This document shows, in pieces, positions 29,690 to 62,756 of a stretch of DNA of 64,000 nt. A program made the position numbers and the translations under genes. Every line of letters begins with the position of its first letter. Position 1 is the stretch's first letter. Under the pieces are notes generated by a model. That model had not been told where the DNA came from, made no database searches, and saw only the letters and a list, made by a program, of their open reading frames with translations. Source of the stretch: Catajapyx aquilonaris (Eukaryota); the NCBI GenBank assembly GCA_000934665.2, contig KZ537966.1, forward strand, positions 124,001 through 188,000, in the 5' to 3' direction.

Positions 29690-32361
<2,672 letters not shown>

Positions 32362-33104: not shown

Positions 33105-33144
33105 CAATGCGGTGTGACGATTGTTGTGTTCCAAATCTTGAGCC

Positions 33145-34197
33145 ATGTCTGAGTACAGCCAGGATGGGAGGAAGATCTTCCGGTCTGCTGTGCCTGTTGA
33201 GAAGCACCCGTGCTTTTGCTGCTGCGGGTGTGAGGATGAGTTGGTGCGTTGCATGCTGGGTTTTGAGCCGGAGGAGCTTGAGGAGGTGGCCTACACTCAG
33301 AGCCTGACTACGTACACTTTGACCAAGGCTAGTGGACAACACAGCGTGAGGGTCCACCCCATCCAGTACAACTTGGAGCCTGCGCTGATGGTACGTGTGG
33401 AGACGTACGCTATAACGCCCAGTGCCAGCTATGCCATGACCAGCATCGGATGCGTGTCAACCTCGCTCATAACGTTAGAAGAATACACTATTGAGCTGCA
33501 GGACGTGAAGGACAAGCCGGAAGAAACCTTCACCCGTCGCACGTTCATGCTGCGTGAACGAGACGGCGTGTACCTTCACAGAAAGTGCACGCAAGGAGGG
33601 ATTGATGTGACTGAATACCTGGAAATCCCATTCCGAGCAATGAAGGGATTTGTGTCAGACACCCTTTCCCATTTGATTGCATATCTGCTCGGTCGCAGCG
33701 GGAAGGTGAAAGCCTTTCAGACCAAAGGGTTTGACATCTTTGGAGAGCCGGCTACACAGTTCTTTAATGTGTCACTTCCTACATGGCGACAGGTGGATCC
33801 GTTTGTACGTGTGAAGGTACGCAAGGTGACACGGAAGATGGGCAACTTCAAGTGGAAGTTCACGTATGATGTGGAGGGCAACCTTTTTCAAATGGGGCTG
33901 CCGTGTGGGGTGCCCATGTCAGCCACAACCTTTCCTTGGGAAATCCAGACGTTGCCATCTGGTACCACCGTGCCTGCACTCAATTGGGAAAATGACATGG
34001 AGCTGGTGTCCAAGTACCTTGACTGTAAGGAGAAGGTAGCAGCAGAGTCACGCAGCTACATGGAGGACCATCCCGAGCTGTCCCACGTCCTGGCTGACTT
34101 TCTGCAGGCAGCACTGCTCCTCCAGCCAACGGATGTGTACGGCTTTGCACAAAGGTGGTTTATGCCTCTCCTTGCACGTGCATCCAAGCGCTATTAG
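33145..34197 (+). CDS. CATIP: Ciliogenesis-associated TTC17-interacting protein (CATIP)-like, single-exon ORF, 350 aa
   Basis: Uninterrupted 350-aa ORF. The C-terminus LNWENDMELVSKYLDCKEKVAAESRSYMEDHPELSHVLADFLQAALLLQPTDVYGFAQRWF resembles the CATIP C-terminal RIIa-like docking region (L.WE.DM.L.SK.LD.KE....SY...HPE......DFL...LL.QP.DV..FA..F). AATAAA at 34284-34289. Confidence 0.8.
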   Translation: MSEYSQDGRKIFRSAVPVEKHPCFCCCGCEDELVRCMLGFEPEELEEVAYTQSLTTYTLTKASGQHSVRVHPIQYNLEPALMVRVETYAITPSASYAMTSIGCVSTSLITLEEYTIELQDVKDKPEETFTRRTFMLRERDGVYLHRKCTQGGIDVTEYLEIPFRAMKGFVSDTLSHLIAYLLGRSGKVKAFQTKGFDIFGEPATQFFNVSLPTWRQVDPFVRVKVRKVTRKMGNFKWKFTYDVEGNLFQMGLPCGVPMSATTFPWEIQTLPSGTTVPALNWENDMELVSKYLDCKEKVAAESRSYMEDHPELSHVLADFLQAALLLQPTDVYGFAQRWFMPLLARASKRY

Positions 34198-34654
34198 TCT
34201 TCCAAGTGCAGCCGCAGCAGCAATCTGATTTCGTCAAGTTCAAATGAATGGAAGTGGCAACCTGTTAAAACTAACATTATTGGAATAAAGCAATTGTTTT
34301 AAACCACAGCTTGCAAAAATAAGCTGTGTGTTCCAGTAATTAAATACTGTATAATTATGTTTGATTACACTGTGACACACAACAAAATTTGTATCCACAT
34401 TTTTTTAAACTAGTGATATTATTCTTGGCAGTACTTTCAGTGAACTCAGTCTGAAGAGAATCAGAGTAGCCGCCTGTGGCCAGTTGAATGGATTCTTACA
34501 TAGCAATGAACTGATAAGCAGGTCTTGCTTAATCGACCTTAGGTTATCTGAGATCCTGCCTCATCTGGCATGACCACAAAACATAGCAAATGGTGTAGGC
34601 TATATTTGTATTATTGCATTACTAATAGTTACATTTCCATCCAGGTGAGACGCC

Positions 34655-35811
34655 ATGACTGACTCAGGCGAAACAAAGACGCCAGGGAAAATAAGGCAAG
34701 ACTTGGTTGGATCAGCAGTGAGATTCCTTGAAAACCCGAGAGTGTCTGAAAGCCCTCTTGATCTCAAGCGCAAGTTTCTTGCTGCGAAAGGCTTGACCGA
34801 AGAGGAAGTTGAAGAGGCCTTCAGGAGAGCCAAACCCTCACCTGCATCACAGCAATCCTTGGCGCTACCTACTCCACCACCTGTCCCTCCTCCGTACTAT
34901 GCACCCGCACCCTACCATGGCCCTCCTTCCTTTTGGATGCAGGTCCGAGACTTTCTGAATGCCTTTGCGCTCATCTTTGGTGTGTCATATGGAGTATATT
35001 ATATCTATAAGGTGAGATGGGGGGCTTATAGTCCATTCATTTCGTAAGGGAGTAGTAATAAGCTGATATTGTCAGAAATTGGCCACTCAGTATTTTACTT
35101 TTGAATGTAAGCGATCTGGAAAGTACAAAGGGATTGGATATTGTTATATGACACAGAAACACGTGCGGCAATGGCTGTTTGATTGTCCTGCGGAGAAGAG
35201 TCAGGAGAAGGCGGTAGCAGAGCTGATACACAACTTGAACCAGTCTGTCCAGGAACTGAAGGAGTCGGTAGCAGAGCTGAAAACGGCAATGGAGGACAAG
35301 GACCAGCGAATTAGTGCCATTGTCCAGGAGGAGGTGGCCAATGCCATACCCACACAGAGGATCAACGACATCAAGAGTGAGGTGGCCTCTGTCAAAGGTC
35401 TTCTGCTTGGCAGGTGAGTAGTCTCCTACTAACTTGGCGATTAATTCAGAAGTATTTGTCCAGCAAACCAGGTTTCCCCAATCCATATTGAACATCCCAT
35501 TCCAACCTTGCAGGAAACAATTTCCTCCAACCCCATCAGTTGCACCCGGTATCCCTGCATGGCAGCTTCCTTCCGCCTCCAAGAAGGACAAAGACGAGAA
35601 GAACGCGGAAGATGAAGACGGTGAGGAAACGTTTGAGGAGGAAGAGGAGGAGAGGGTGGTGTCCATGGGCAGCACCAATGGAAGTAGCTCTTGTGAGGTG
35701 GTCATGATGAGCAGCAAAAGTGAAAATAGTGTGGGGGTCACAGGAGGTGTCGCAGTTCCGGGAGGGGGAGGCAGCGATACTAGTCAGGGAAGTGCTGAGA
35801 TGCCGGAATGA
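34655..35811 (+). CDS. PEX14: Peroxisomal membrane protein PEX14 (3 coding exons)
   Basis: Exons 34655-35011, 35157-35413 and 35514-35811. Pex14_N domain IRQDLVGSAVRFLENPRVSESPLDLKRKFLAAKGLTEEEVEEAF, then a proline-rich linker, a hydrophobic segment, a coiled coil, INDIKSEVASVKGLLLGRKQFP, IPAWQL and an acidic tail. Confidence 0.95.
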
Positions 35812-43549: not shown

Positions 43550-46500
43550 TCACATCCTCCGGTAGAGGTAAAGGTAGCCCAGATCCTTTGGAGGGTTTTC
43601 CGAGAGGGCCACCTTGTTGTCGTTGTAAATAACCCAATGGCCGTCCCGGAATATGTGGCAGACGTAGTGACCAACCATGGTGGAGGTTCCCATATGGGAG
43701 ATGAACGCCTGGAGTTTGTAGACTGGAAAAAGTATTGCATGTGGATCAGTCTTGTATTTCTATTTGGTGTAAGTCATGTTACAACAAAACATATTGCCAT
43801 GACACTGAAACCGACTCTAACAGTATTCAATAGCTGGAAACGGGCATGTCATAGTTGAGGCTAAGTTGGTGAAGCTCAATCACTGCCACCCTTCTCCTGC
43901 CCAACAACAATTGCTCATAACACCAGTTTCCACTGCCTTCGTAAATAAAAAGTCGTGATAAGTAGTAGTTTTCCCTTATCACTCTGCCGATACAGTTACA
44001 TAATGTAATCAGCTCTGTTGGCCACTTCCTAAAATCAATATTTGTTAAGTGCTTTCTTTTGGCAAGTGTTTTCTGCCCAGCTACACAATCAAAACAGATA
44101 ATTAAAATTTCACTACTGTGTAGCACCATTTTTTTTTAAGTCGTAGATAACAGGCCAGACAAGTAAAAATTGCCATGATAAGGTTTCCCTACTGAGAAAA
44201 CTTTATCTCATTAGAGAGGGGAGCCTCGTTTCCTTAACCCCAACCTTCTCAAGAGGAATCTGTGCACTTTTAGTGGAAGACACTGTAATGGCCCCAGGGG
44301 GGTAATAAGTCCAACTGCTAGTTGCTACAAAATTGTTTAGGCAGCCCCAGGGATGAGATAAACTTGACAGACTTAAACTTGGTGCATCGTTCAAGCTCAT
44401 AACAAGAAACTATCGTGCTCCTTAAATCAAAGGTTCACATTCATTTTGCATAATTATTTCAGTTTCCTCAGGGAATGTAAGCCAAGTAAACCATGGTGGG
44501 AAGCTAGGGTGTGCAGCACAGTTATCAGCAGTGCACTATGTTCATTTACAAGGTGGGTCAAATATTAATGGAACTGATTTTTTTAAAGAACATTCCTTAT
44601 TACACATTGACTTCTTTTACATGTCACTCTTCAAGAACTTCCCACTGGCTACTGCACATTTTTCCAGCATTCTGGTAGTTGTTTCATCCCCTTTTCAAAC
44701 ATGCTTTTTTAGGTTGTGGGAGTATCCTCTCTCGAACAATTGCCATCACAGCATCGTTGCCTTCACACTGCGCACTCCAGCTGCATCCGACTTAAGTCTT
44801 CCAAACAGGTAGATTATCACTTGAGCTCATATCTGGGATCAAGAGTGGGTTTGGCAGGAGGTCCCACCTTACTTTTTGATGGTATTTTGGGGCAGTGTGG
44901 GGTCTTGTGTTGTCTTGAAGGAAGTAAATCAGTTTTCCTCCAGTCTTACTCTTGGATCGGATTTGTTTCTTCACCTCTGTTAAGATAATGGCTGAATAGT
45001 ATTCTGCAGTGATTGTTCTGCCTTCTCCTAACAAATCAACAAGAATAATTCCCTTCCAATCCCCCAAAAACATCGCCATAACTTTTCCAGCCAGCTTTTC
45101 GGGTCTTGAGGTTCTCCACTCTCAGAGTTCCCTTTCTCAAGGCTTTACGCCACACAAACACGTGGGTTCGAGATAGACACTCTTCCTCATACAGTTTAAC
45201 TCTCTGCCAAATTTCTAATCAATTGACGTATTCCCAACGAGAAATTTGATGATAATGCGTTGTTCTACGCTCCGTGATACTTTCTGCTTGGTTATCGCTC
45301 CTGGAAATTGCAGACAAAACTGAGAAGGATCCCCCATTTGCTGAACAGAGGGGATGCGTTTAGGCTTCAATTGTGCAATAATTTGTTGGGCGGGTTTCTT
45401 TGTTCTGAAAAAATCAGTCCCAGTCATATTTGAACCCCCTTGTAGATTAGAAACATTACTGGCCACCTGGACCTAATGAGGCGAGCCCAAACCTATCCTT
45501 AACTATTTGTAAAGTAAAAGGCTCTCCGCAATGGTACAAAAATATCGAGCACTCACTCCCAGTTCCATCACGGTATTGTGGTCCATCAGGTACAGCGGCC
45601 ACAGCAGCCTCAGCATCATCCTTGTCCAGCTCATCTTGGTGGCTGAATATCCAGTCAATGGCCCTCTCAATGGCATTATCAGTTGCCTTCAGTGCTTTGG
45701 CTGCTTGTGACCGTGTGAATCCCATGGCCATTATGGTGGCGACAGCTCCTTCGTCTGGCTGGAAAGAGGCTCCTCCAGAAGTGCCACCATGTTGGAATGG
45801 GTCATTGATGTCTGCATCATCCAGGTGCTGCATCAGCCAGTTCGTAGCCTCCTCAATGCCAGCACCAGCAGTATTGTAGGCTGCCTTTTTGCAGGCCTCA
45901 GAATTGAAGCCCATGTCCATTAGCTGCTGCACTACGGCCATGTCCAGCATTACCTAGATGGTCATGGACAGTCATGATCAGAAAGGTCAACAAATATTGC
46001 AGAAATGCCCAGCTGCATATGGTTTCCTGGCTCATCATAATTAATTCGAGAAATTCACACATGTTTATGAGAGCAGTTGGTCAAGATCTTTATGTACAAG
46101 GACATCCATAGCATGATAATTCATTCTGATTTAATCAACTTCCCCAACACATCATTGCCTGAGTTTATATGCATAGAATGACATTTAAAATCACCTGAGG
46201 CTGCTGCTGCTGCTGCTGGCCTTGCCCTTGAGCCTGCCCCTGGGCAGGGACATCAGGGAGCTCCAGCTCTCCGGCTTGCATCCCATGAGCACGTAGCATA
46301 GAAATGTCCATGACTTCAGGCATCTCCACAGCCACATCCAGCTTTTTAGGCTGCCAATCATCCCCTACAGTGAACTTTTTCAGCTGGATCATGAGGTAGT
46401 CAGGAAAGGTGGCGAGGCGTGTGGTCTTCCTGGCAAGGGTGCGAGCATTCACTGCAGTGCTGAAGAACTCTATTATTTCCGGCTCAGAGAAACTCTCCAG

Positions 46501-49500
46501 GCAGGCATCCAAAGTTATGTGGGGGCGGACTAGCTGATCGGGGCTAAGCCTCTGACCCTTCGATTCTGCATCTGCCTTTCGTTTTTCATAAGCTGCAACT
46601 TCATCCTGTTGTACGCATGAAAATTATTCATTGCGATATACATGCCATTAATAATAACAGTAAAAACGTCACCAGTTAATAAAACGCAACCAAGTGATTT
46701 AAAATCTTTGGCAAACACCTCACGTTGAAGGCATTAGCCAAATTACTGCATTGCGCAAGCTAACCTTATTTGTAGCTGACTCCAGTGGAATGGGAAGTGG
46801 AAGCGATGACTCTGTACGATGTGCATATTTAACCTTCCCTGATTTGGTGCATTGGACCTTGTCCTCTACCCGAAACTTAAAGCAATCAGCCGGATTGGCC
46901 TGATGGCGACTGTTCCTCTGCAAACCAATCAACAAGACTGTTACTAAACAACATGAGGACATGTCGTACACCTCAATTGGGATGAGCATACCTCAACTAC
47001 ATTTATAAGATGAAGAAGAAATTCCTGGGCATCCTGCTGCTTCTTTGTGGAGAATTCTGGGTGGTCTTTCCCAATCAACATCCGGAAACGCTTGGGACTA
47101 ACGCCAGGCTGAGACTCATTGGCATCCATATCAATAGAGTTGCCGTCAGCAGGAGGGGTAGAGTACTTACCACTCAGAAGACCTGTACCAAGTTTTGCCC
47201 TGAAACAATATTCAGAATAAGTTTGTGTACTATGACTGGCAATTATTTGACGATTGTCACAGGCTACACAAATGTTGTACAATGCTAGTGCAGTCGCTAA
47301 TACTAATAGTATGACTGAGGACACGAAAGTCAAGTGGCATAGCTGTGATGACAACATGGCGAACTTATTTAACCATAACTTACATCTGCACATTGAAGTC
47401 GCCCACTGGGTCATTGTGGCCATCAAAAATTGCCTCAGCTCCATCAACAAACCTCTGCTGGAAGTCAGGTATAGTGAACAAGACTTGCATGACGCTGTTC
47501 AGGTAGCACGAATTTCCCAAATTGGCCAGACCAGTGTACCCGGGACCAAACATGGGCTTCAGGTGACAGCCAGCCTCCTGCAGGGTGGCCCATTCTCCCA
47601 CCCGCTGGTTCATGTCAATCTCCAACTCAGCCATGGATTTGTCAGTCTGGAACAAAAAAGGAATTAACCTCCAGAACATCACTCTATTTGGTGCAATTCG
47701 TACTTTCATATGGGGCTTTTCTTATGCCTTCATTATTAGGGCATTCCAGTATCACAATTTATCTCAGCAAATTAGACGACAGCAATATTAATCCGTAGTT
47801 ATTTATCATTTACCTTCTCCATCTGGGAAATGTTGATGCCAAAATGGGCAAGGTGTTGCACCAGCTTGGGATCCTCCACCATGTCATCTTCATCGTAGCT
47901 GTACACATCTGCCTTCCCATCTGGAGTAATTGTGCCCAGCTTCACTGCTAGTGGGTAACCTGTCTTTTGGAAGTGTTCCAAAGCATGGTTGTTCCCACCC
48001 GAGCCATCAAAGAAGCGGCGGCCACAGAGAACGCATCCATCTGTGAGGTTGAGCCAGAGATTCTCTGTCATGTCGCAGTCCTCACACTTCCAGCCACGAG
48101 GAGGAATCTTCCTGCCATCATTAATTTGGACGAGGTTTTCTGCATGCCTAGGTAAGAACAGGGAATTAAATTATTTTTTTGAAGACTGGGTTCCTAAAAT
48201 CCGAAGATTTCATACACATTCATTCATTAGATCATTACATTCTGCCAATTTCAACAGAAAACTGCTCTCAAATTACTTACTTTGAAACCTTTCGTAGTTC
48301 ACCATCCCATGTTGCATTTAACGCTTGGATCTCATCAAGCTTACTGGCAGAATCAGCTGCAATTAATGCGGCAGCAGCTAACTGCACCTGCAATTGGATT
48401 ACAATCTCTTATAATAAAGCCTCAAAATGAACATCAGGGGTCCAAAAGACAAGCAATTTATTCATCTTATGTGGACTGTGCAATCTTCACCATTTGTGTC
48501 ACCCATACTGTACCATATCTATTGTGCACAACAATAGTCTCAATATGGACAAATGGTCAGTTCTACATGGTGACCCAAAAGTCTGGACACACAGGTAATT
48601 GTATTTTGTTGTTGGTTGACAACCATGTGTCCAGACTTTTGGATCGCCATGTAGAAGTTGTCATTTGTCCATATTGAGGCGATTGTTTTGCACAATTTGG
48701 TACTTTTTAGAATAAAAACATGAAAAAGCAAACCATACACGTTCAGGAAGCTCTGGATTAGGAAAAGACGTCTGCGCAAAGTCCGGCAGAACGACCAGGT
48801 TGAAATGCTCATCGTACTCATACTTCTTGGCCGTGTCCGGATTGAACCCTCCTTCAACCCCGATGGCTAGCCGCGTTATCTTCTTCTCCGGCCCCTCATT
48901 GTTCCCCTTCTCCAAAGGTATCTCCTTCTTGTACCTCTTCACATGAAGGAACACCGAGTTGCCTGTCTTCCTTTGGTAACGCTCCACATACTCACGTCCA
49001 AGCCCCAGGAAAGTGCTCATGCACACATACAATCCATTTTCCGATTCCTAGAGAGAGAGAGAAATTCATTTCAAACATATGGGAACGTTTGTTTGTTCGT
49101 TCACAGCAAGGGTCTCCATGGCAGCAAATTGGCCATGCAAAGAATGGGCTCCGTTGCTAGTCTACCATAAAAACTGTCCCCTGACTGTTGCCACGGACAA
49201 ACAAACTTTACAAAGGAGAGTTTGCCCATGCCAACGGTTCTTCGCATAGCCTGTGTCCATCCTTTGATGCCATGGTGAGGACCGTTGCCATGGGCAAACC
49301 AACATTCTTTGTATAAGAAAGTTTGTTTGTCCATGGCTACAGTGAGGGGACTGCTGTTATGGTGGCCATGGACAATCTTTCCCTTACAAAGTATGTTGGC
49401 CCATGGCAACGATCCTCACCATGGGTACAGGGCCATGGGAAGAATGGGCTCTGCTGCTAGTCTACCACAAAAATGTCCAATTTGACAAACTTTACACGGG

Positions 49501-50576: not shown

Positions 50577-52252
50577 ATTGTACAGTACTCCCGATTATCC
50601 GGGTGCGGATTATCCGTGCATCGGCCCGAAAAAAATTCAATAATATGTTCGTCAACAGAAGCGAAAGACTTTTTCCAGAAGACAACTAAAAATCTATGGT
50701 AAATTTTATTATTTCATTACACATTATTTAAAGCAGCATACACTATGTACAGTAGTACCATACATAAATCTCTTAATGGCTCATTTTTACGGTATCTATA
50801 ACCATTTCCGGATTATCCTTGTTTTTCTGTTATTATCCACCCGTGCAGTCATTAGCCCGGATAATTGGGATACTGTGTGATGATGATGACCGTAATTGTA
50901 CATAATCAGTGCTACAGAAATGTACATCTCAGCGGCTGTAATGAGCCAGAAGAATAAATCATTATCGCCTTCGTCGTCATCACAACAATAATAATGAGCG
51001 TAATTGTACAGCTGTAGGGATCCATAAATATGCGTACATTGGTACATTATAAAATAAGTCTTACTATAACATTTATTTAGAAATGACCTTAACTTCCATT
51101 TGTTGCCAACTGTTGACAGGACGAAACGTGACCTTCACCATTTCATTTCAGGATCAGAGTGAATCGGTTGAGCGACTGCATATTAGTCTGAGCGATGCGT
51201 ACGGCAAGTTTAAGGATAAGAGCCTGACCTGCAATAGAGTTGACTTCTCCGACCGGATTGCACAAGGGAGGTTGCACCAGCGTGGGTACGATGTGCCGCC
51301 GCCTGGTGGGAGTTGGGAGGTTGTGGGGGTCGGGGAGAAGGAGACGCCGCTGCAGAAGTACCAGCGGTTGCAGTGCGAGATTCACGAGCTGATGGAAGAG
51401 GTGACGCAGCTGAAGGGGACTGTCAAGGATGAGACCAAAGGGGAGCAGCCATCAGCAGTACTTCTGGCAGCTCAAGTCGAAGGACTGCAAAAGCAGTTGG
51501 AGTCTGTGAAGCTGGAGGAGACCCTAGGTTCGGAGGTCATTGGCAACTTGGCTGATCCGCATGGCACGCAGCAGAAGAAACTGTTGGCCCAACTGGAGGC
51601 ACTCCGACAGATCAAATCGAAAGAGGCGCCAAAGGGTGGGAAGGCCACCGAAAAGGGAGGGTCAGTCTACGAGCTGTACCACCGTCCAACACAAACCCAG
51701 ATGGCCGAGTCGGCCAAAGCAGCCGAGCTTGAGAAGAGGCTGCAACGCATGGAGACAGTGGTTGGAGCCACACCCGAGAAGCTGTCAAGCCTAGCTGCCG
51801 AAACCAATCACAAGTCGTTGCTGGGCGCCGTTGCCGTGCTTGATGCGAAGTCGTCTCTGCTTGACCCAGCCCAGCTAGACCACATCGAGCTGCGTTTGAC
51901 AAACCTGGTCCAGAAGTTAAACCAAGTAGCGGAGAGGAAGCCTGTTGAAGACTCAGAGAAGCAGAGCCGGGTGGCCGAGCTGTATGATCTGATGAAGAAG
52001 TCTGAGGCGAACTGTGGCGCTTTGCCTGACATGCTTCAGAGGATGTCTGCCCTGAAGGAGCTGCACGAGCAAGCCCTGCAGTTCGACAAGGCTTTACTGC
52101 AGTTGGAAGCAGCACAGCAGCAGGTCGCAGCGAATCAACAGGCACACGAGCAGTTGCTGCAGGAGTTACAAGCTAATATTGCTAAAGATTTGCAGGCTAT
52201 GACCAAGAACATGGCTAGTCTTGACACCAGGGTGGGAGCTCTAAAAAAATAA
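50307..52252 (+). CDS. DCTN2: Dynactin subunit 2 (p50/dynamitin), 3 coding exons
   Basis: Exons 50307-50342 (MADPKYADLPGI), 50412-50483 (AYDQPDVYETTDLPE...) and 51152-52252 (KETPLQKYQRLQCEIHEL..., coiled coils). The N-terminus is the diagnostic dynamitin sequence. Confidence 0.96.
50511..50575. repeat. (AAT)n microsatellite
   Basis: About 21 perfect AAT units in DCTN2 intron 2. Confidence 0.95.
50583..50875. mobile_element. pogo/Tigger-like MITE in DCTN2 intron 2
   Basis: (ta)cagtactcccgattatccggg at the left end and cccggataattgggatactg at the right end form imperfect TIRs starting CAGT. A related end (tacagtagaaccccgatcatccg) is near 31850. Confidence 0.65.
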
Positions 52253-54263: not shown

Positions 54264-57200
54264 ATGCCTACATCAGAAGACATGGAAAAGTCGGTGTCCA
54301 AGGAGGTAGAGGAGGCGATGGCAGCGTTTGCAAATGATGATGATGATGACGACGATGACTGGAACTTCAGTGCCATCAATATAACAAGCAGTCCGGTAAA
54401 AGAGACCAGTGACAAAAGTAGATCAGATGATAGTTGTATGTTTGATGAGTTGGATGATGCAGCTGATGATGCACTTCTTAGTGTGAGCATGGAAATTTTT
54501 ATTTGTCTTCTTTTATTTTAGAAACCTCGGATATCGCTTTTACTTTACTGACACATTTTGATTTTAGGCATGTGAGGAAGCGGAGAAGTCATTGGAAGTG
54601 TCAGGTGATGGAGAAGAAAGCGACTCCAGCCATCTTTCAGGTTTTTATACAGTTGTGGTGTGTACAATCAGCAATCTTCTCATTCGCATTCTTTTAAATT
54701 CTCCAGGCATACCAGCACCTAGCGAGGATCACTTGAAAGTGCTGCAGCAATCCTTTGGGCATTCAAAATTCCGTCCTCATCAGTGGAAGATCATCTATAA
54801 CGTTATAGAGCAAAAGAGAGACCAGTGTGTCATTATGGCAACTGGTTACGGGAAGAGTCTTTGCTATCAGTTTCCCCCGGTGTATGCTAAAGGCTTGGCC
54901 ATTGTCATATCTCCACTGATCTCGCTTATGACTGATCAAGTCCTGGCATTGGAGGTGATGTACTGAAGAATTTTGTTACCTATTTTCAGTATACTGATGT
55001 ATTATGGCGTTTTCAGATGGCAAACATCAGTGCTTGTTTTCTCGGCTCTGCTCAAAAGGAAACCAAGAGTACAGTGTCAAAACTCCTGGCTGGTGAATAT
55101 CGTGTGGTGTACATGAGCCCCGAGTTCTGCAATGGTGATTATGGTCACGATCTGTTGGACGAGATGCATAAGAAACTGAGTGTTACGCTAATTGCCATTG
55201 ATGAAGCCCACTGTGTCAGCCACTGGGGACATGACTTTCGGTCATCATATTTGTAAGATTTTTATTTTGTACTTTCTCCGTAGTTTTTGCAGTTTTAAAA
55301 AATTAAGTATTGAGAAGTCACGTTTAGTATGAAATTTCAGTTGCTTTATTACACAGCCACTGAGTATGGGCCGCTTATTTGCCATTGCTTTGAATCTTGA
55401 TGTTGCTTGTGTTAAGTGAAATTAATTATTTATTGTTTATGTGATGAATGTATGTGTGTTTGTACTATTACAGGACCTTGCATAAATTGAGACTGAAGTT
55501 CAGCCAAGTCCCATTCTTGGCTCTGACTGCCACTGCTACACCAAAGGCCAAAAATGATATTTGTGCTGCTCTCAGATTGCGGTGCGTCCTGTCATAACAA
55601 GCTTGCAATTCGTAGTTTATCAACATCTCTACTTTTGCAGCTCCCCAATACTCACTTGCACCAGCTTTGATCGTCCCAACTTGTACCTGCAAATGAACCG
55701 AACTGGTTTTGGCATTATGGCTGATCTGAAGGAACTCATGTCAGAGAAAACACCTGGAGTTTGGGGATTTGATGGTCCCACCATCATATACTGCCCTACC
55801 AAGTCGAGAACTGAGGAGGTAGCTCTGGCACTGAAATCCAGCAAGATTGACTGCGTGATATACCATGCTGGCATGACTCCTACCCTGCGAAAGCAGTCTC
55901 ATGAGCAGTTTGTTCGGGATAAGGTCCAGATTGTGGTGGCCACAGTGGCCTTTGGGATGGGCATAGACAAGCCAGACGTTAGGAATGTGGTGCACTATGG
56001 GGCTCCAAGGGACATCGAGTCATACTATCAGGAGATTGGGAGAGCTGGACGAGATGGATTGCCAGCCAGCTGCCATGTCTATTGGGAAAAGAAGGACTTT
56101 AACGTACACATGTGAGTATTGGCACATTTGGAGTAATGGTAGGGTGATTTGATGTGTGAATATCCATGCATTATTCACATGCATGAGACTTTTCTGACTT
56201 ATTATGCTGTATAAGCATACTTGCTACACCTTCACAATGTGGGAATAAATTTCGCATCTTAATTTTATGATAAACTTATTTAATAGTTGCAATTGTGTAA
56301 AATTATGAAGATGACCAGTTTTATTCCCACATTGTGAAGGTGTGGGAAGTATGCTTATAGCACATGTCTAATGTAAAGTTGGAACACTTGCAAAATTTTG
56401 TTCAAATGGTTGTAACAGTTAACGACAAAAAAAAATTCGCTTGTAAAATTTATTATGAAAAAATGCAACTTTGAAAAGTGCTATGAAACAAATACGGTAG
56501 TCAGAAGTTGCAGGAAATAGATTATCATGGTTGGAAAATAACATTACCATACTCAGTTTGACCCTTTAGTAAATATTGGAGCATTTACATAATGTTAAAG
56601 ACTGTAAATGCAATGATTGTATTCCCTTAATACAGGTACTTCCTGAAAGATATCGAGAAGGAATCATTCCGCGAATACCGGCACTCCATGATTGAAAACA
56701 TGAAGAAATACCTTTCCATCAAGGGATGCCGACGCAAATTTCTCCTGGAGCACTTTCAACCTACAGTGCAACTAGAAACAAGCTCAGGAAATTTACGCTG
56801 CTGCGACAACTGCACAAGGAATGTCCTGCAGCTTGGAAGTTCCTCTTCTGGTAGAGGGGATCAGGTTGACAGCTCTGAAGATTTCACTCAGGATGCCATA
56901 CTCCTCTTGAAGGCAGTTAATGTCTTCAACGGTTACAAAGGCATCAAAGCTTCAGTGCTGCTTCTGAGGGGATCCAAAGCAAGTCAGTTGGATGCCCGCT
57001 ACCACAAGCATGCGCTGTATGGTGTTGGGAAGCAGCACCCAGACCAGTGGTGGCTAGCACTTGGTTAGTAGCAGATGTCTCGTGTGGTAACATCAGTAAA
57101 AGTTCTGTTGACGTTTGTTGTAATTCTAGCTGACATGCTGACTGATGCAGGGTACCTGAAAAAGACTCTCAAAAAGACCAGTGCATACTCCTGGGTGTCT

Positions 57201-60059: not shown

Positions 60060-60666
60060 GAATAAGTTCAAAGGTGTACAATTTCCCTGCCAGTTGTATG
60101 TTATGCGGTTACATTGAAGGTGTACTACTGCTTGCATTTTCGCTTATTTAGTCTAAGCCACATGTATGTGAAGGCATACTAGAGTAACAATGGAGCCTGA
60201 AGTGTCTGGTTTTTGTTTGGAAAAATTAAATCCATTTCTGCAGTTCTAGGACTGAAAGGAGACTGAAAGTAACTGCATAACCATAGCTTATTGATTTCCT
60301 GACTTATTTCCCGGGAAATGTAATTTTTCTACAATGGCATTGTGACTTCATGCTCAATATGCGGAATAAAAAATTGTTAGTTCATCTTTTCTTTTCATTT
60401 CATATAAATTATTTCATGGAGATGATAGGGTATGGATTGTACATGTAAAATGAGACTACTACACCTAATACCAGGAAGAGGCTAGAATGGTTTCACATCA
60501 GATGCAGCTACCCTTCCTCTGCAAATAACAAGTGCTCCAAACAATACCTAGCAAAGAAACAGCTCAAATGTTGAAGGGTTATAATTACTTTTTATTTGTA
60601 AACACCATCTAACAGGTAAAATAACTTTGCATACACACGAATGAGAGGGTAAAAATGTTGTCCTGA

Positions 60667-61086
60667 TCATGTTAGCCCTTCTCGTTCTTTCCAAGTCTTC
60701 TTCATTTCTTCCTTCTTTTTCATCCGTCTCTCTTTCTCTGCCCTTTTCCTGTCCTCCGCTCTCTTCATTTGAGCTGCCACACTCATATCTCCATTCATGA
60801 CTGAGTCGAGCTTCTCCACCATTAGCTTCCTGGCCAGCTTCCTGTTTTGGTCCTGAGACCTGGTCTGGACACACTTAACACCGACTCCACTTGGTATGTG
60901 TTTCAGCCACACGCAGCTGGAAGTGGTGTTGATTCCCGAGCCCCCCGGTCCATGACCTTTCACAAACTCCTCTTCCAAATCCTCTTCCCGAAGGACAGGA
61001 TATCTGGAGTAATCTATGTGTTTAGCACGATGCAACAGTCGGCAGCAATTGCCGAGCCGAAGAAGGGGCACTCTCCACAGAGCCAT
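60667..61086 (-). CDS. MTRFR: Mitochondrial translation release factor in rescue (mtRF-R / C12orf65), 139 aa, GGS instead of GGQ
   Basis: Single-exon ORF with an Arg/Leu-rich targeting-like N-terminus, LREEDLEEEFVKGHGPGGSGINTTSSCVWLKHIPSGVGVKCVQTRSQDQNRKLARK (C12orf65 signature) and a basic C-terminal tail. Minus-strand AATAAA at 60591-60596. Confidence 0.92.
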   Translation of the reverse strand: MALWRVPLLRLGNCCRLLHRAKHIDYSRYPVLREEDLEEEFVKGHGPGGSGINTTSSCVWLKHIPSGVGVKCVQTRSQDQNRKLARKLMVEKLDSVMNGDMSVAAQMKRAEDRKRAEKERRMKKKEEMKKTWKEREGLT

Positions 61087-61596
61087 TCATATAACACGTT
61101 TCTTCGCAATGAAAGTCAGCCCTTTCTGAAAGTTGATAAGTCAGTGCTTTAGGATTATGCTGTACTGTTCATAATCAAGGGCAATCAGCCAATAATTATA
61201 ACCATGATTATAACACTCAGCAGGTAAGTTCACGTGAATGTGCTAGGCCAGAAAGAGATTACAATGTCACCACAATATTATTGTCGTATATCTACGTATT
61301 ATGTACCACTTTTATGGACATGTTTTTCCCTTCCTGAGAAGCAGACACATATTAACAAATCTTGTAAAATATCTGATTGGGAAGAATGAATGGAAATTAT
61401 GCTCCACGCATGTATGCTATACCTCGTATTGAAACCGTATATCCTCGTCGCTTGTGATGTTCCTGTTCTTCTCGAACTCCCTCCTGACCCTCCTCTGGAA
61501 GAACTCGTTGTCCGTGTACCGCAGACCCTTCCCGTACCGGAGCAGGTTGCGATAAAGCCTCACAACTTGCATCGGACTAGGGATGCAAGCGGCCAT
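61087..61596 (-). CDS. LYR-family microprotein homologous to AltMIEF1/AltMiD51 (L0R8F8), 70 aa, 2 exons
   Basis: Exon 1 is 61596-61423 (MAACIPSPMQVVRLYRNLLRYGKGLRYTDNEFFQRRVRREFEKNRNITSDEDIRFQYE). A phase-0 intron spans 61422-61126 (GTATAG...TTTCAG). Exon 2 is 61125-61087 (KGLTFIAKKRVI*). The pattern LYRxLLR...LRYTD...RREF.KN...EKGL.F matches my recollection of human AltMIEF1, which is also 70 aa. Confidence 0.88.
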
Positions 61597-61982: not shown

Positions 61983-62596
61983 ATGGCTAGTAAGCAGGCT
62001 GCGGATGATGACTACTACCAGATACTTGGTGTTCCACGGGATGCGACTCTTGAGGACATCAAGCAGGCGTAAGTTCAGGAGTTCATTCCCTGTCACTTGT
62101 ATATGAGAGCAGGCTAATCCGGTGCTGCTGCTTATTGGGGTAAGGAGCAGGTAAATTAGAGATGGAATAGTACAGTACATAAACAGTAAATAGAGCTGGA
62201 AAGCCCAGTGCAAGACTTTCTTACATCTGCTTGCCCCGTCATGTCATTCTTTACTGATGTGCACTGGCCTGCAAACGAACAGACATACTGTGTGTAAAAT
62301 TCCAGCCTGGCATGCACGCTGAGAGGATCTTGCATCTGGAGAGCCACTAAATATTTTAAAGAATATTTCTTATTAATCCTCAATGTCTTCCTCAATATTT
62401 CCTCAATATCCGCTGGCAACCCCACATCTGTTTGTGAAACGCTGTGAAGATGATGATGATGATCTCTTATTTAATGTTATTTATAGGTACAAAACCCAAG
62501 CACTTAAATGGCATCCTGACAAAAACCCAGACGACCAAGAGGGAGCCACCAAGCAATTCAAGGAGATTTCTGAAGCTTACCAAGTTCTTACTGATG
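61983..62596 (+). CDS. DnaJ/Hsp40 co-chaperone, DNAJB6/DNAJB2 (Mrj)-like, first two coding exons (continues beyond window)
   Basis: Exon 61983-62068 ([29 protein letters not shown]) joins exon 62487-62596 ([36 protein letters not shown]), giving a J-domain with the HPD motif. [10 protein letters not shown] is typical of DNAJB2/6. Confidence 0.88.
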
Positions 62597-62756
62597 GTGA
62601 GTTATTCAGTAACATCAACAGTTAGCATATTAGGAGCTGGCTGGATTATATTGAAGGTAATATGAGTTACTCCATTCCTAATTTTTTTCTCTTGGCTGTG
62701 CCCTTATTATACCAAAATCAACTATTAAATTTGAAAACATCACGTATAAACCAAAT

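Follow-up and report, generated by a model that had tools for sequence, protein, structure and literature searches.

The window examined here is a stretch of 64,000 nucleotides of the Catajapyx aquilonaris genome (GenBank assembly GCA_000934665.2, contig KZ537966.1, positions 124,001 to 188,000 of the forward strand). Its minus strand carries a small gene predicted to encode a mitochondrial rescue factor of the mtRF-R (C12orf65) type, in which the catalytic Gly-Gly-Gln (GGQ) motif of the release factors (RFs) is replaced by Gly-Gly-Ser (GGS), and directly ahead of it lies the coding sequence of a LYR-motif protein, apparently on the same spliced transcript (Table 1). The minus strand reads GGA CCG GGG GGC TCG GGA ATC AAC, that is G-P-G-G-S-G-I-N, within the wider context G-H-G-P-G-G-S-G-I-N, and the Ser codon TCG occupies positions 60937-60939. 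No internal stop codon is present in the open reading frame (ORF) according to the ORF list. Judged from the alignments presented below, GGS is a recurrent and constrained state across arthropods, which in several lineages adjoins a GGQ copy.

Table 1. Features of the LYR/mtRF-R locus, in coordinates of the window
Feature	Position	Strand	Basis and remarks
AATAAA candidate polyadenylation signal	60591..60596	-	Sequence only; about 70 nt past the RF stop; the X5 contig stops earlier, at 60625
mtRF-R-type ORF	60667..61086	-	Single exon, ATG to TGA, 139 residues (coordinates include the stop codon)
C-terminal Lys/Arg-rich helix, residues 103-136	60679..60780	-	DSSP on the AlphaFold2 model
Gly-Gly-Ser codons GGG GGC TCG in place of the catalytic GGQ	60937..60945	-	Direct reading and alignments
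N-terminal 23 residues preceding the conserved H-I-D-Y-S block	61018..61086	-	Presequence-like
LYR protein, coding part of exon 2, 12 codons and stop TGA (61087-61089)	61087..61125	-	In-silico splice
Intron, 297 nt, GT..AG	61126..61422	-	One X5 contig
LYR protein, coding exon 1, 58 codons from ATG 61596	61423..61596	-	Translation; Pfam Complex1_LYR (PF05347), E 1.4e-11

The sole Pfam family found in the 139-residue protein is RF-1 (E 1.9e-20, residues 32-127), unaccompanied by PCRF or codon-recognition domains. When the PDB chain sequences were searched with phmmer, human C12orf65 (7a5h_C) was the top match (E 3.1e-33, residues 3-134 of the query against 25-157 of the chain) and mouse C12orf65 (2rsm_A) the second (E 1.6e-26), while the best RF2 and RF1 chains reached only 1.8e-12 and 5.3e-10, respectively, and 2jy9_A ('Putative tRNA hydrolase domain'), which we take to be an ICT1-type domain, just 4e-4. 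In the alignments to the human and mouse proteins the Ser faces exactly the Gln of GPGGQ. Identity to any homologue is 58-60% at most. An AlphaFold2 model built from a 20-row alignment, with a mean predicted local distance difference test score (pLDDT) of 79.8, consists of three strands, a long helix (residues 78-101) and the C-terminal helix, and Foldseek returned the 7a5h_C and 2rsm_A entries as its top two, 7a5h_C being the best (template modelling score by target 0.81, root-mean-square deviation 2.0 over 106 columns). The first 25 residues include five Arg or Lys and one Asp or Glu, and pLDDT falls below 50 at residues 1-3 and 7-19; this N-terminus is a candidate mitochondrial targeting signal, and the product is predicted to be mitochondrial.

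By descent, as far as sequence comparison can tell, the gene is of the mtRF-R/C12orf65 type, and its predicted product is a GGS variant, not a canonical GGQ release factor. The Gly-Gly pair of the catalytic loop is retained, the GGQ of class-1 release factors is not found, and the site is without the Gln that could be N5-methylated. This methylation is performed on the GGQ Gln by enzymes of the HemK/PrmC type, and Ser is unable to carry it. Human mtRF-R (7A5H chain C) and mouse 2RSM likewise consist of an RF-1 domain only with a basic C-terminal helix (56% identity over 106 fold-aligned columns), but the human protein possesses the N5-methylatable Gln where the window protein has Ser, measures 166 residues against 139, and differs from the window protein in that the latter is encoded as a second cistron behind a LYR ORF. 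ICT1/mL62 and ArfB (YaeJ) are also described as codon-independent RF-1 rescue factors with a basic C-terminal tail (PMC3472500, PMC6514570); however, C12orf65 is a much closer relative of the window protein than ICT1 is. According to PMC8786322, ICT1 acts on the 55S ribosome with an empty A site, and mtRF-R acts on the split large subunit.

The authenticity of the GGS codon was examined through a sequencing-run search, which gave five run rows from two studies. Of these, X1, X4 and X5 were compared with the window as contigs, not as reads, and contigs are unable to show rare variants. X1 and X4 come from one sample, are possibly the source data of the window and hence not independent of it; both show 0 differences to the window. 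X5 belongs to a different sample and study, its library kind is not on record, and it covers 15 of 30 bins, the uncovered parts proving nothing. None of the five rows is on record as RNA, a fact that says nothing on expression. In X5, a single contig of 563 nucleotides joins 61484-61423 to 61125-60625 with no other letters changed and no indels, and it carries TCG at 60937-60939 just as the window does. Its junction (61125|61423) skips 297 nucleotides bounded by GT..AG on the gene strand (CT..AC on the plus strand), and the joined form is not present in the DNA runs X1 and X4. Two-base RNA editing back to CAG was not seen in the X5 contig. Since a second sample yields TCG as well, in a contig that is spliced and RNA-like, the GGS codon is very unlikely to stem from misassembly. 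The broader suspicion that the site reflects a sequencing or assembly error, or that the gene is a decaying copy, can draw on a sole caveat, the possible identity of X1 and X4 with the window's own source data, and we find it hardly credible: apart from the X5 contig, the reading frame is unbroken and its product can be aligned with human mtRF-R from one end to the other, every family-invariant residue except the Gln is retained, and GGS recurs in many annotated genomes. The sequence-only reading of this locus had proposed an otherwise intact mtRF-R/C12orf65 homologue with a genuine GGS and had recommended its confirmation in further sequence data. The Pfam, PDB and fold matches, the uninterrupted ATG-to-TGA frame with its nearly full-length alignment to human mtRF-R, and the recovery, at contig level, of TCG in the second sample all agree with that proposal.

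Splicing in silico at the X5 junction yields a LYR ORF of 70 residues upon translation, the stop codon of which directly abuts the RF start codon (61084-61086), so that the junction reads UGAAUG. Around the LYR start, positions -3 and +4 are A and G, respectively. Between this start and that of the RF, the spliced RNA contains two more ATGs, an in-frame one at codon 9 and an out-of-frame one 4 nucleotides ahead of the RF start. Since the LYR start context is strong and the LYR stop abuts the RF start, we infer that the RF would be made mainly by termination-reinitiation, with some leaky scanning. A further in-frame ATG 48 nucleotides 5' of the LYR start (61644-61597, minus strand) has a weaker context, lies beyond the X5 contig and would add 16 residues (75-residue ORF). 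At a distance of about 0.8 kb from the LYR start, a DnaJ-domain exon (62383-62625, plus strand) is arranged head-to-head with the LYR/mtRF-R gene, and the two may share a bidirectional promoter region.

The PDB was searched with exon 1 of the LYR protein only (58 residues), and the best match was the human MIEF1 upstream open reading frame protein, or AltMIEF1 (5ool_v, 70 residues, E 6.1e-9), whose sequence is identical to a chain in 7a5h, the structure that also holds C12orf65. All of the top seven matches were AltMIEF1/L0R8F8-type chains of human, mouse or trypanosomatid origin (6e-9 to 8e-4), and LYRM4 (7e-3), followed by the complex I B22 subunit, ranked below them. A search for homologous proteins with the same exon gave no candidate, which reflects the limit of the word index at such a query length. 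AltMIEF1/L0R8F8 would be the closest counterpart of the upstream cistron. It too is a LYR-motif protein of 70 residues translated from the upstream ORF of a dicistronic mRNA (5OOL, 7A5H), although its host gene is MIEF1 by PDB naming, as opposed to the mtRF-R gene in the window, and its partners mtACP and MALSU1 are not encoded there. The split mitochondrial large ribosomal subunit (mt-LSU) with mtRF-R and MTRES1 (7A5H) is reported to bear also the MALSU1-L0R8F8-mtACP anti-association module (PMC8786322), so that both cistrons would encode counterparts of proteins sharing one human mitochondrial particle. The earlier suggestion, by which the co-encoded LYR protein was linked to mt-LSU anti-association, is consistent with these matches, which include the 7A5H chain.

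The LYR-mtRF-R dicistron is not new, since a conserved peptide upstream ORF (uORF) with a length of 70 codons was described for fly CG30100 in 2008, with conservation extending to an Ixodes expressed sequence tag under the label 'Arthropoda' (Hayden and Bosco, 2008; PMC2276209). Marygold et al. (2016; PMC5354226) identify CG30100 as the orthologue of C12orf65 in the fly, and the CG30100 uORF matches the 70-residue LYR ORF of the window, a likeness drawn from the description and not from the fly sequence; unlike here, the uORF is not termed LYR or L0R8F8 in the accessible portions of either paper. Our literature search, in which subscription journals were largely uncovered, returned no paper that calls the uORF L0R8F8 or ties L0R8F8/AltMIEF1 to the mtRF-R gene.

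Gene models in which a LYR protein is fused to the RF amounted to seven, three of them GGS (Rhynchophorus P0003, Psylliodes P0139 and Mythimna P0128) and four GGQ (Blattella P0054, Eretmocerus P0094, Microctonus P0138, and P0093). In addition, eight arthropod-like loci (L001-L008) were recognized among 80 metagenome loci, and in six of the eight a LYR ORF lies upstream of the RF ORF on the same strand, with GGS in L003, L004 and L007 and GGQ in L001, L002 and L006. Of the other two, L005 extends too short a distance upstream, and in L008 the upstream position is taken by a GGQ ORF instead of LYR. The complete LYR ORFs end 32 nucleotides (L003) or 45 nucleotides (L007) before the RF start, or overlap it (L004), and their endings are similar to the C-terminus of the window LYR protein (K-G...L...R followed by two hydrophobic residues). 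The idea that LYR linkage marks the GGS form is ruled out, the linkage being common to GGQ and GGS models and loci. The sequence-only reading had offered, next to a methylation-independent or attenuated rescue hydrolase, a non-catalytic factor possibly working with the co-encoded LYR protein; its link to the mt-LSU module is supported, but the linkage is not specific to GGS, as the fused models, the loci and the fly uORF indicate, and it gives no special support to a non-catalytic role because LYR+GGQ models and loci exist. Among public models of the family, P0084, P0167 and P0193 look mis-joined: in P0084 an insert resembling a retained intron follows P-T-G, and P0193 begins with a lengthy unrelated stretch. 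Database annotation of this small dicistronic locus is unreliable.

Among 209 homologues, a redundant set with many mammals and 14 near-copies in one cluster, the motif residue is Q only in 181 and S only in 22, while in five a partial repeat with Q precedes a full domain with S; the one other, P0143, shows Q plus a spurious second regex match. A residue other than Q or S at the motif was found in none of the 209. The named carriers of GGS are Nezara, Sipha, Rhynchophorus, Folsomia, Psylliodes, Mythimna, Orussus, the mite Brevipalpus and the nematomorph Gordionus, to which Cylas and four Timema species, with a Q fragment and then an S domain, can be added. They thereby span bugs, aphids, beetles, a moth, a sawfly, stick insects, a springtail, a mite and a horsehair worm. 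GGQ is carried by Panulirus, vertebrates, Limulus, Bacillus rossius, Cryptolaemus, Blattella, Eretmocerus, Microctonus and a second Psylliodes gene. The dipteran-like homologues (P0058 and its clade, so labelled from the UniRef accession pattern, not by name) also have GGQ. Two separate metagenome contigs (L012 and L025) hold RF-1 ORFs with G-P-G-G-M, codon ATG, at the GGQ site. An alignment of related species had been proposed in order to see whether GGS is clade-wide. GGS recurs across arthropods and is not private to this genome; GGQ lineages occur among them as well. No natural GGS mtRF-R was described in the papers reached by the literature search, with the same limited coverage of subscription journals. 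The C12orf65 group has been described as 'retaining the catalytic GGQ motif', and the only motif loss discussed in the accessible part of that paper concerns an extra ICT1-like protein in ticks (Duarte et al., 2012; PMC3472500). C12orf65 is also treated as active by Burroughs and Aravind (2019; PMC6514570).

A maximum likelihood (ML) tree was built from 102 rows (22 S and 80 Q) and 115 columns, with the motif column removed. The rows were those of the 101-row protostome-like clade of a 169-row FastTree overview, minus the Cylas Q fragment P0044a, and the rows added were P0011, P0023, P0066 and P0087 (the last two from outside the overview clade), the S parts of P0044 and P0045, and the window protein. 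Five outgroups were picked as vertebrate-like, of which P0133 fell inside the ingroup. Most mammals, fungal and other distant clades, near-identical cluster members and two Q fragments were left out. The tree shows 11 Q/S state changes, at least three of which are forced by branches with Shimodaira-Hasegawa-like approximate likelihood ratio test (SH-aLRT) support of at least 95. A single GGS clade is rejected by the approximately unbiased (AU) test (p-AU 0.00033), forcing the 22 GGS rows together being 144.6 log-likelihood units worse. This test does not prove many independent substitutions, because gene conversion between tandem Q/S copies also makes gene trees follow species. The tree loosely tracks taxonomy, and many forks are unresolved with so few columns. 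A springtail-like clade is uniformly S (7/7), as is a mite-like clade (3/3), Orussus (S) is nested in a 15-row clade the other 14 rows of which are Q, two of these being named Hymenoptera, and the beetle clade mixes S and Q.

The invariant columns are the same in the 22 GGS and the 80 GGQ rows. Both glycines are kept in 22/22 GGS rows, and so are the preceding G-x-G-P and the N, H, P, K, R, N, A, L, D, N and S columns; no residue obviously co-varying with S could be seen in the column table of these two groups. With respect to the codons, Ser is encoded by TCG in the window and L003, TCA in L004, TCT in L007 and AGC in L008, so that both Ser codon families are represented. The proteins of L004, L007 and L008 belong to one springtail-like clade, and since Ser has been kept across a TCN/AGC switch within one clade, the codons point to selection for Ser itself. 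None of the single-base neighbours of CAA or CAG encodes Ser; the path requires two changes via Pro or a stop codon, or three changes to AGC. In L008 the codon pairs G-CAG-CA and T-AGC-AA share AGCA offset by one base, and a compensated indel is a possible, if speculative, route between CAG and AGC.

These data bear on the view that constraint on the site is simply relaxed, with the Gln dispensable on the split mt-LSU, where ICT1 or other factors back it up, and Ser being near-neutral and without a function of its own. The frequent state changes on the ML tree and the likeness of the rest of the protein in the GGS and GGQ groups would suit such a view. However, drift from CAA or CAG should first give H, K, E, R, L or P, none of which occurs in the 209 homologues, whereas Ser, two or three base changes away, is the sole substitute in that set; moreover, Ser was retained across the codon-family switch and throughout the springtail-like clade. 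We thus consider relaxed constraint quite improbable.

GGQ and GGS copies have also been found next to each other. In Psylliodes, P0139 (LYR + GGS) and P0167 (GGQ) have consecutive accessions on one 100.9-Mb contig and exhibit three differences, including the Q/S site, over about 95 residues from H-T-L-D to the final K-K-K; the P0167 model fuses the GGQ domain to an unrelated SAP-domain tail. The 1163-nucleotide contig of L008 contains a 5'-truncated GGQ ORF (1-297), a gap of 150 nucleotides and a complete GGS ORF (447-947). This pair shares 77 residues over 98 codons and 233 of 294 bases, with a synonymous divergence (dS) of 0.84, a nonsynonymous divergence (dN) of 0.134 and a dN/dS of 0.16, a pairwise value not assignable to the GGS branch alone. 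Within an otherwise all-GGS springtail-like clade, the L008 GGQ copy groups as sister to the GGS copy beside it (99/95). In Timema, the models of 4/4 species place a 33-residue GGQ segment immediately before the matching GGS segment, and in Cylas the RefSeq model links an N-terminal portion with GGQ to a complete GGS protein. The tandem pairs fit two histories, namely old pairs homogenised by gene conversion save for a selected Q/S site, or duplications that arose repeatedly, with the same change ensuing each time. The sequence-only reading had held that a canonical GGQ orthologue elsewhere, with the GGS copy evolving neutrally, would speak against it. GGQ copies do coexist with GGS copies in other species, but the latter are not evolving neutrally, so that at most half of this counter-case applies. 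For the window itself, tblastn with nine RF queries (E up to 10) detected no second RF-1 domain in the 64 kb beyond the mtRF-R locus.

The presence of such pairs raises the alternative that the GGS protein is a non-hydrolysing paralogue, with hydrolysis left to the GGQ copy or to ICT1/mL62. The side-by-side genes of Psylliodes and L008, the GGQ fragments ahead of the GGS domain in Cylas and in the four Timema models, the co-encoding with an L0R8F8 orthologue and the reports of bacterial RFs inactivated by GGQ mutations are all compatible with it. On the other hand, the LYR linkage is common to the GGQ genes listed above (P0054, P0094, P0138, P0093, L001, L002 and L006) and marks no new role, and within the window there is no second RF-1 domain, the upstream neighbour being the head-to-head DnaJ gene. 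Furthermore, the non-catalytic RF-1 derivatives described so far in the sources at hand have lost the whole motif, as in the tick ICT1-like protein (PMC3472500) and MRPS35 (PMC6514570), while in the GGS group G-G is kept in 22/22 rows, with Ser the only substitute. On balance, we regard a non-hydrolysing paralogue as somewhat unlikely.

We lean, by a modest degree of confidence, toward a different explanation as the best one, namely that the GGS protein still hydrolyses, independently of methylation and probably more slowly or less selectively. In this explanation, the window gene is a genuine, expressed and selectively maintained mtRF-R and occupies the second place on a spliced dicistronic mRNA, the first cistron of which encodes the 70-residue counterpart of AltMIEF1/L0R8F8, the LYR subunit of the MALSU1-L0R8F8-mtACP anti-association module; the mtRF-R genes of arthropods alternate between GGQ and GGS or retain the two forms next to each other. 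According to the mechanism we envisage, the GGS protein would bind the A site of the split, peptidyl-tRNA-bearing mt-LSU and insert its intact Gly-Gly turn into the peptidyl-transferase centre (PTC), where ester hydrolysis would be promoted through backbone positioning. With neither the Gln side chain nor its N5-methylation available, such a hydrolase would be independent of methylation and probably slower or less selective for water. The sequence, its splicing, the homology, the conservation and the recurrent GGS are shown by the data given above, and the location in mitochondria, the way the RF is translated and the retained hydrolysis are inferred. The GGS loop should still enter the PTC because G-G-S and every other contact residue are strictly retained, and the methylation-independent hydrolase is favoured because the retained loop is argued to reach the PTC. 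Small side chains at the Gln position reportedly kept much of the hydrolysis rate in the work of Shaw and Green in 2007.

The literature on the motif offers a framework for this proposal. Mutations of the Gly residues are reported to abolish release, the backbone angles being accessible to glycine only, while the Gln side chain packs in the PTC and, together with its main-chain NH, orients the water, with methylation fixing the conformation (PMC5799190). Methylation of the GGQ Gln is described in PMC8131318 as well as in PMC5799190. GGQ mutations have also been stated to lower efficiency or to loosen the choice of nucleophile (PMC9589212). A laboratory counterpart is the engineered GGS RF1 of Thermus thermophilus on the 70S ribosome (9MTR, with the GGD mutant in 9MTQ), which has the same swap in the same motif, although it is a mutant of a codon-dependent bacterial RF; the loop segment of the window scores 35.6 bits against the 9MTR GGS-mutant chain and 33.7 bits against the wild-type chain.

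Several points weigh against retained hydrolysis. Mutation of each GGQ residue is reported as lethal in E. coli (PMC9589212, citing Mora 2003), and GGQ mutations are stated to render RF1 and RF2 inactive (PMC8131318). In addition, the conservation of the GG-S loop would likewise fit a mere PTC binder, and the dN/dS of the L008 pair, as already mentioned, is not assignable to the GGS branch alone. Finally, Psylliodes, Cylas, Timema and L008, at least four lineages in all, have a GGQ copy or fragment beside the GGS copy, an arrangement under which the GGS copy could give up hydrolysis. We nevertheless keep the methylation-independent hydrolase as the preferred reading.

As to the remainder of the window, dynactin subunit 2 is encoded at 51083-52249 (plus strand; Pfam Dynamitin, E 7.9e-97) in one uninterrupted and apparently intronless frame of 389 residues, with 51% identity to Periplaneta and 46-49% to other insects and crustaceans. 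Pfam matches in long exons further indicate CATIP_N (33142-34197, plus strand) and Pex14_N (34649-35047, plus strand), and Pfam matches also mark a USP5-like deubiquitinase with zf-UBP, UCH and two UBA domains (45456-48170, minus strand) and a RecQ-type helicase (54568-57068, plus strand). An ORF at 31954-32361 (minus strand) has no Pfam match and by eye resembles the N-terminus of an adaptor-complex medium subunit.

A bolder proposal, which we hold to be doubtful at present, is that arthropods, and perhaps other ecdysozoans, possess a two-state mtRF-R system, in which GGQ and GGS forms would be repeatedly generated or kept side by side, often in tandem behind the L0R8F8 cistron, with selection holding the Q/S difference, and in which the GGS form would be a specialised partner at the PTC of the split mt-LSU, devoid of normal water-selective, methylation-tuned hydrolysis. 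If this were true, the GGS form might hold nascent chains, gate the action of MTRES1 or use another nucleophile, and the window species would represent a lineage with the GGS form alone at the ancestral dicistronic locus.

The gene and the dicistron had been described before; what appears to be new is the recurrence of a constrained Gln-to-Ser state, together with the tandem Q/S pairs. The dicistron of mtRF-R and L0R8F8 ties the rescue factor genetically to the anti-association module that was later found on the same particle by cryo-electron microscopy. Among the peptidyl-tRNA hydrolases of the release-factor family, GGQ has been regarded as universal, and an intact mtRF-R with Ser departs from that. 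Recurrent GGS, sometimes with a GGQ twin, amounts to a natural experiment on the role of the catalytic Gln and its methylation in split-LSU rescue, with matched pairs ready for assays in Psylliodes, where the two forms are three residues apart, and in L008.

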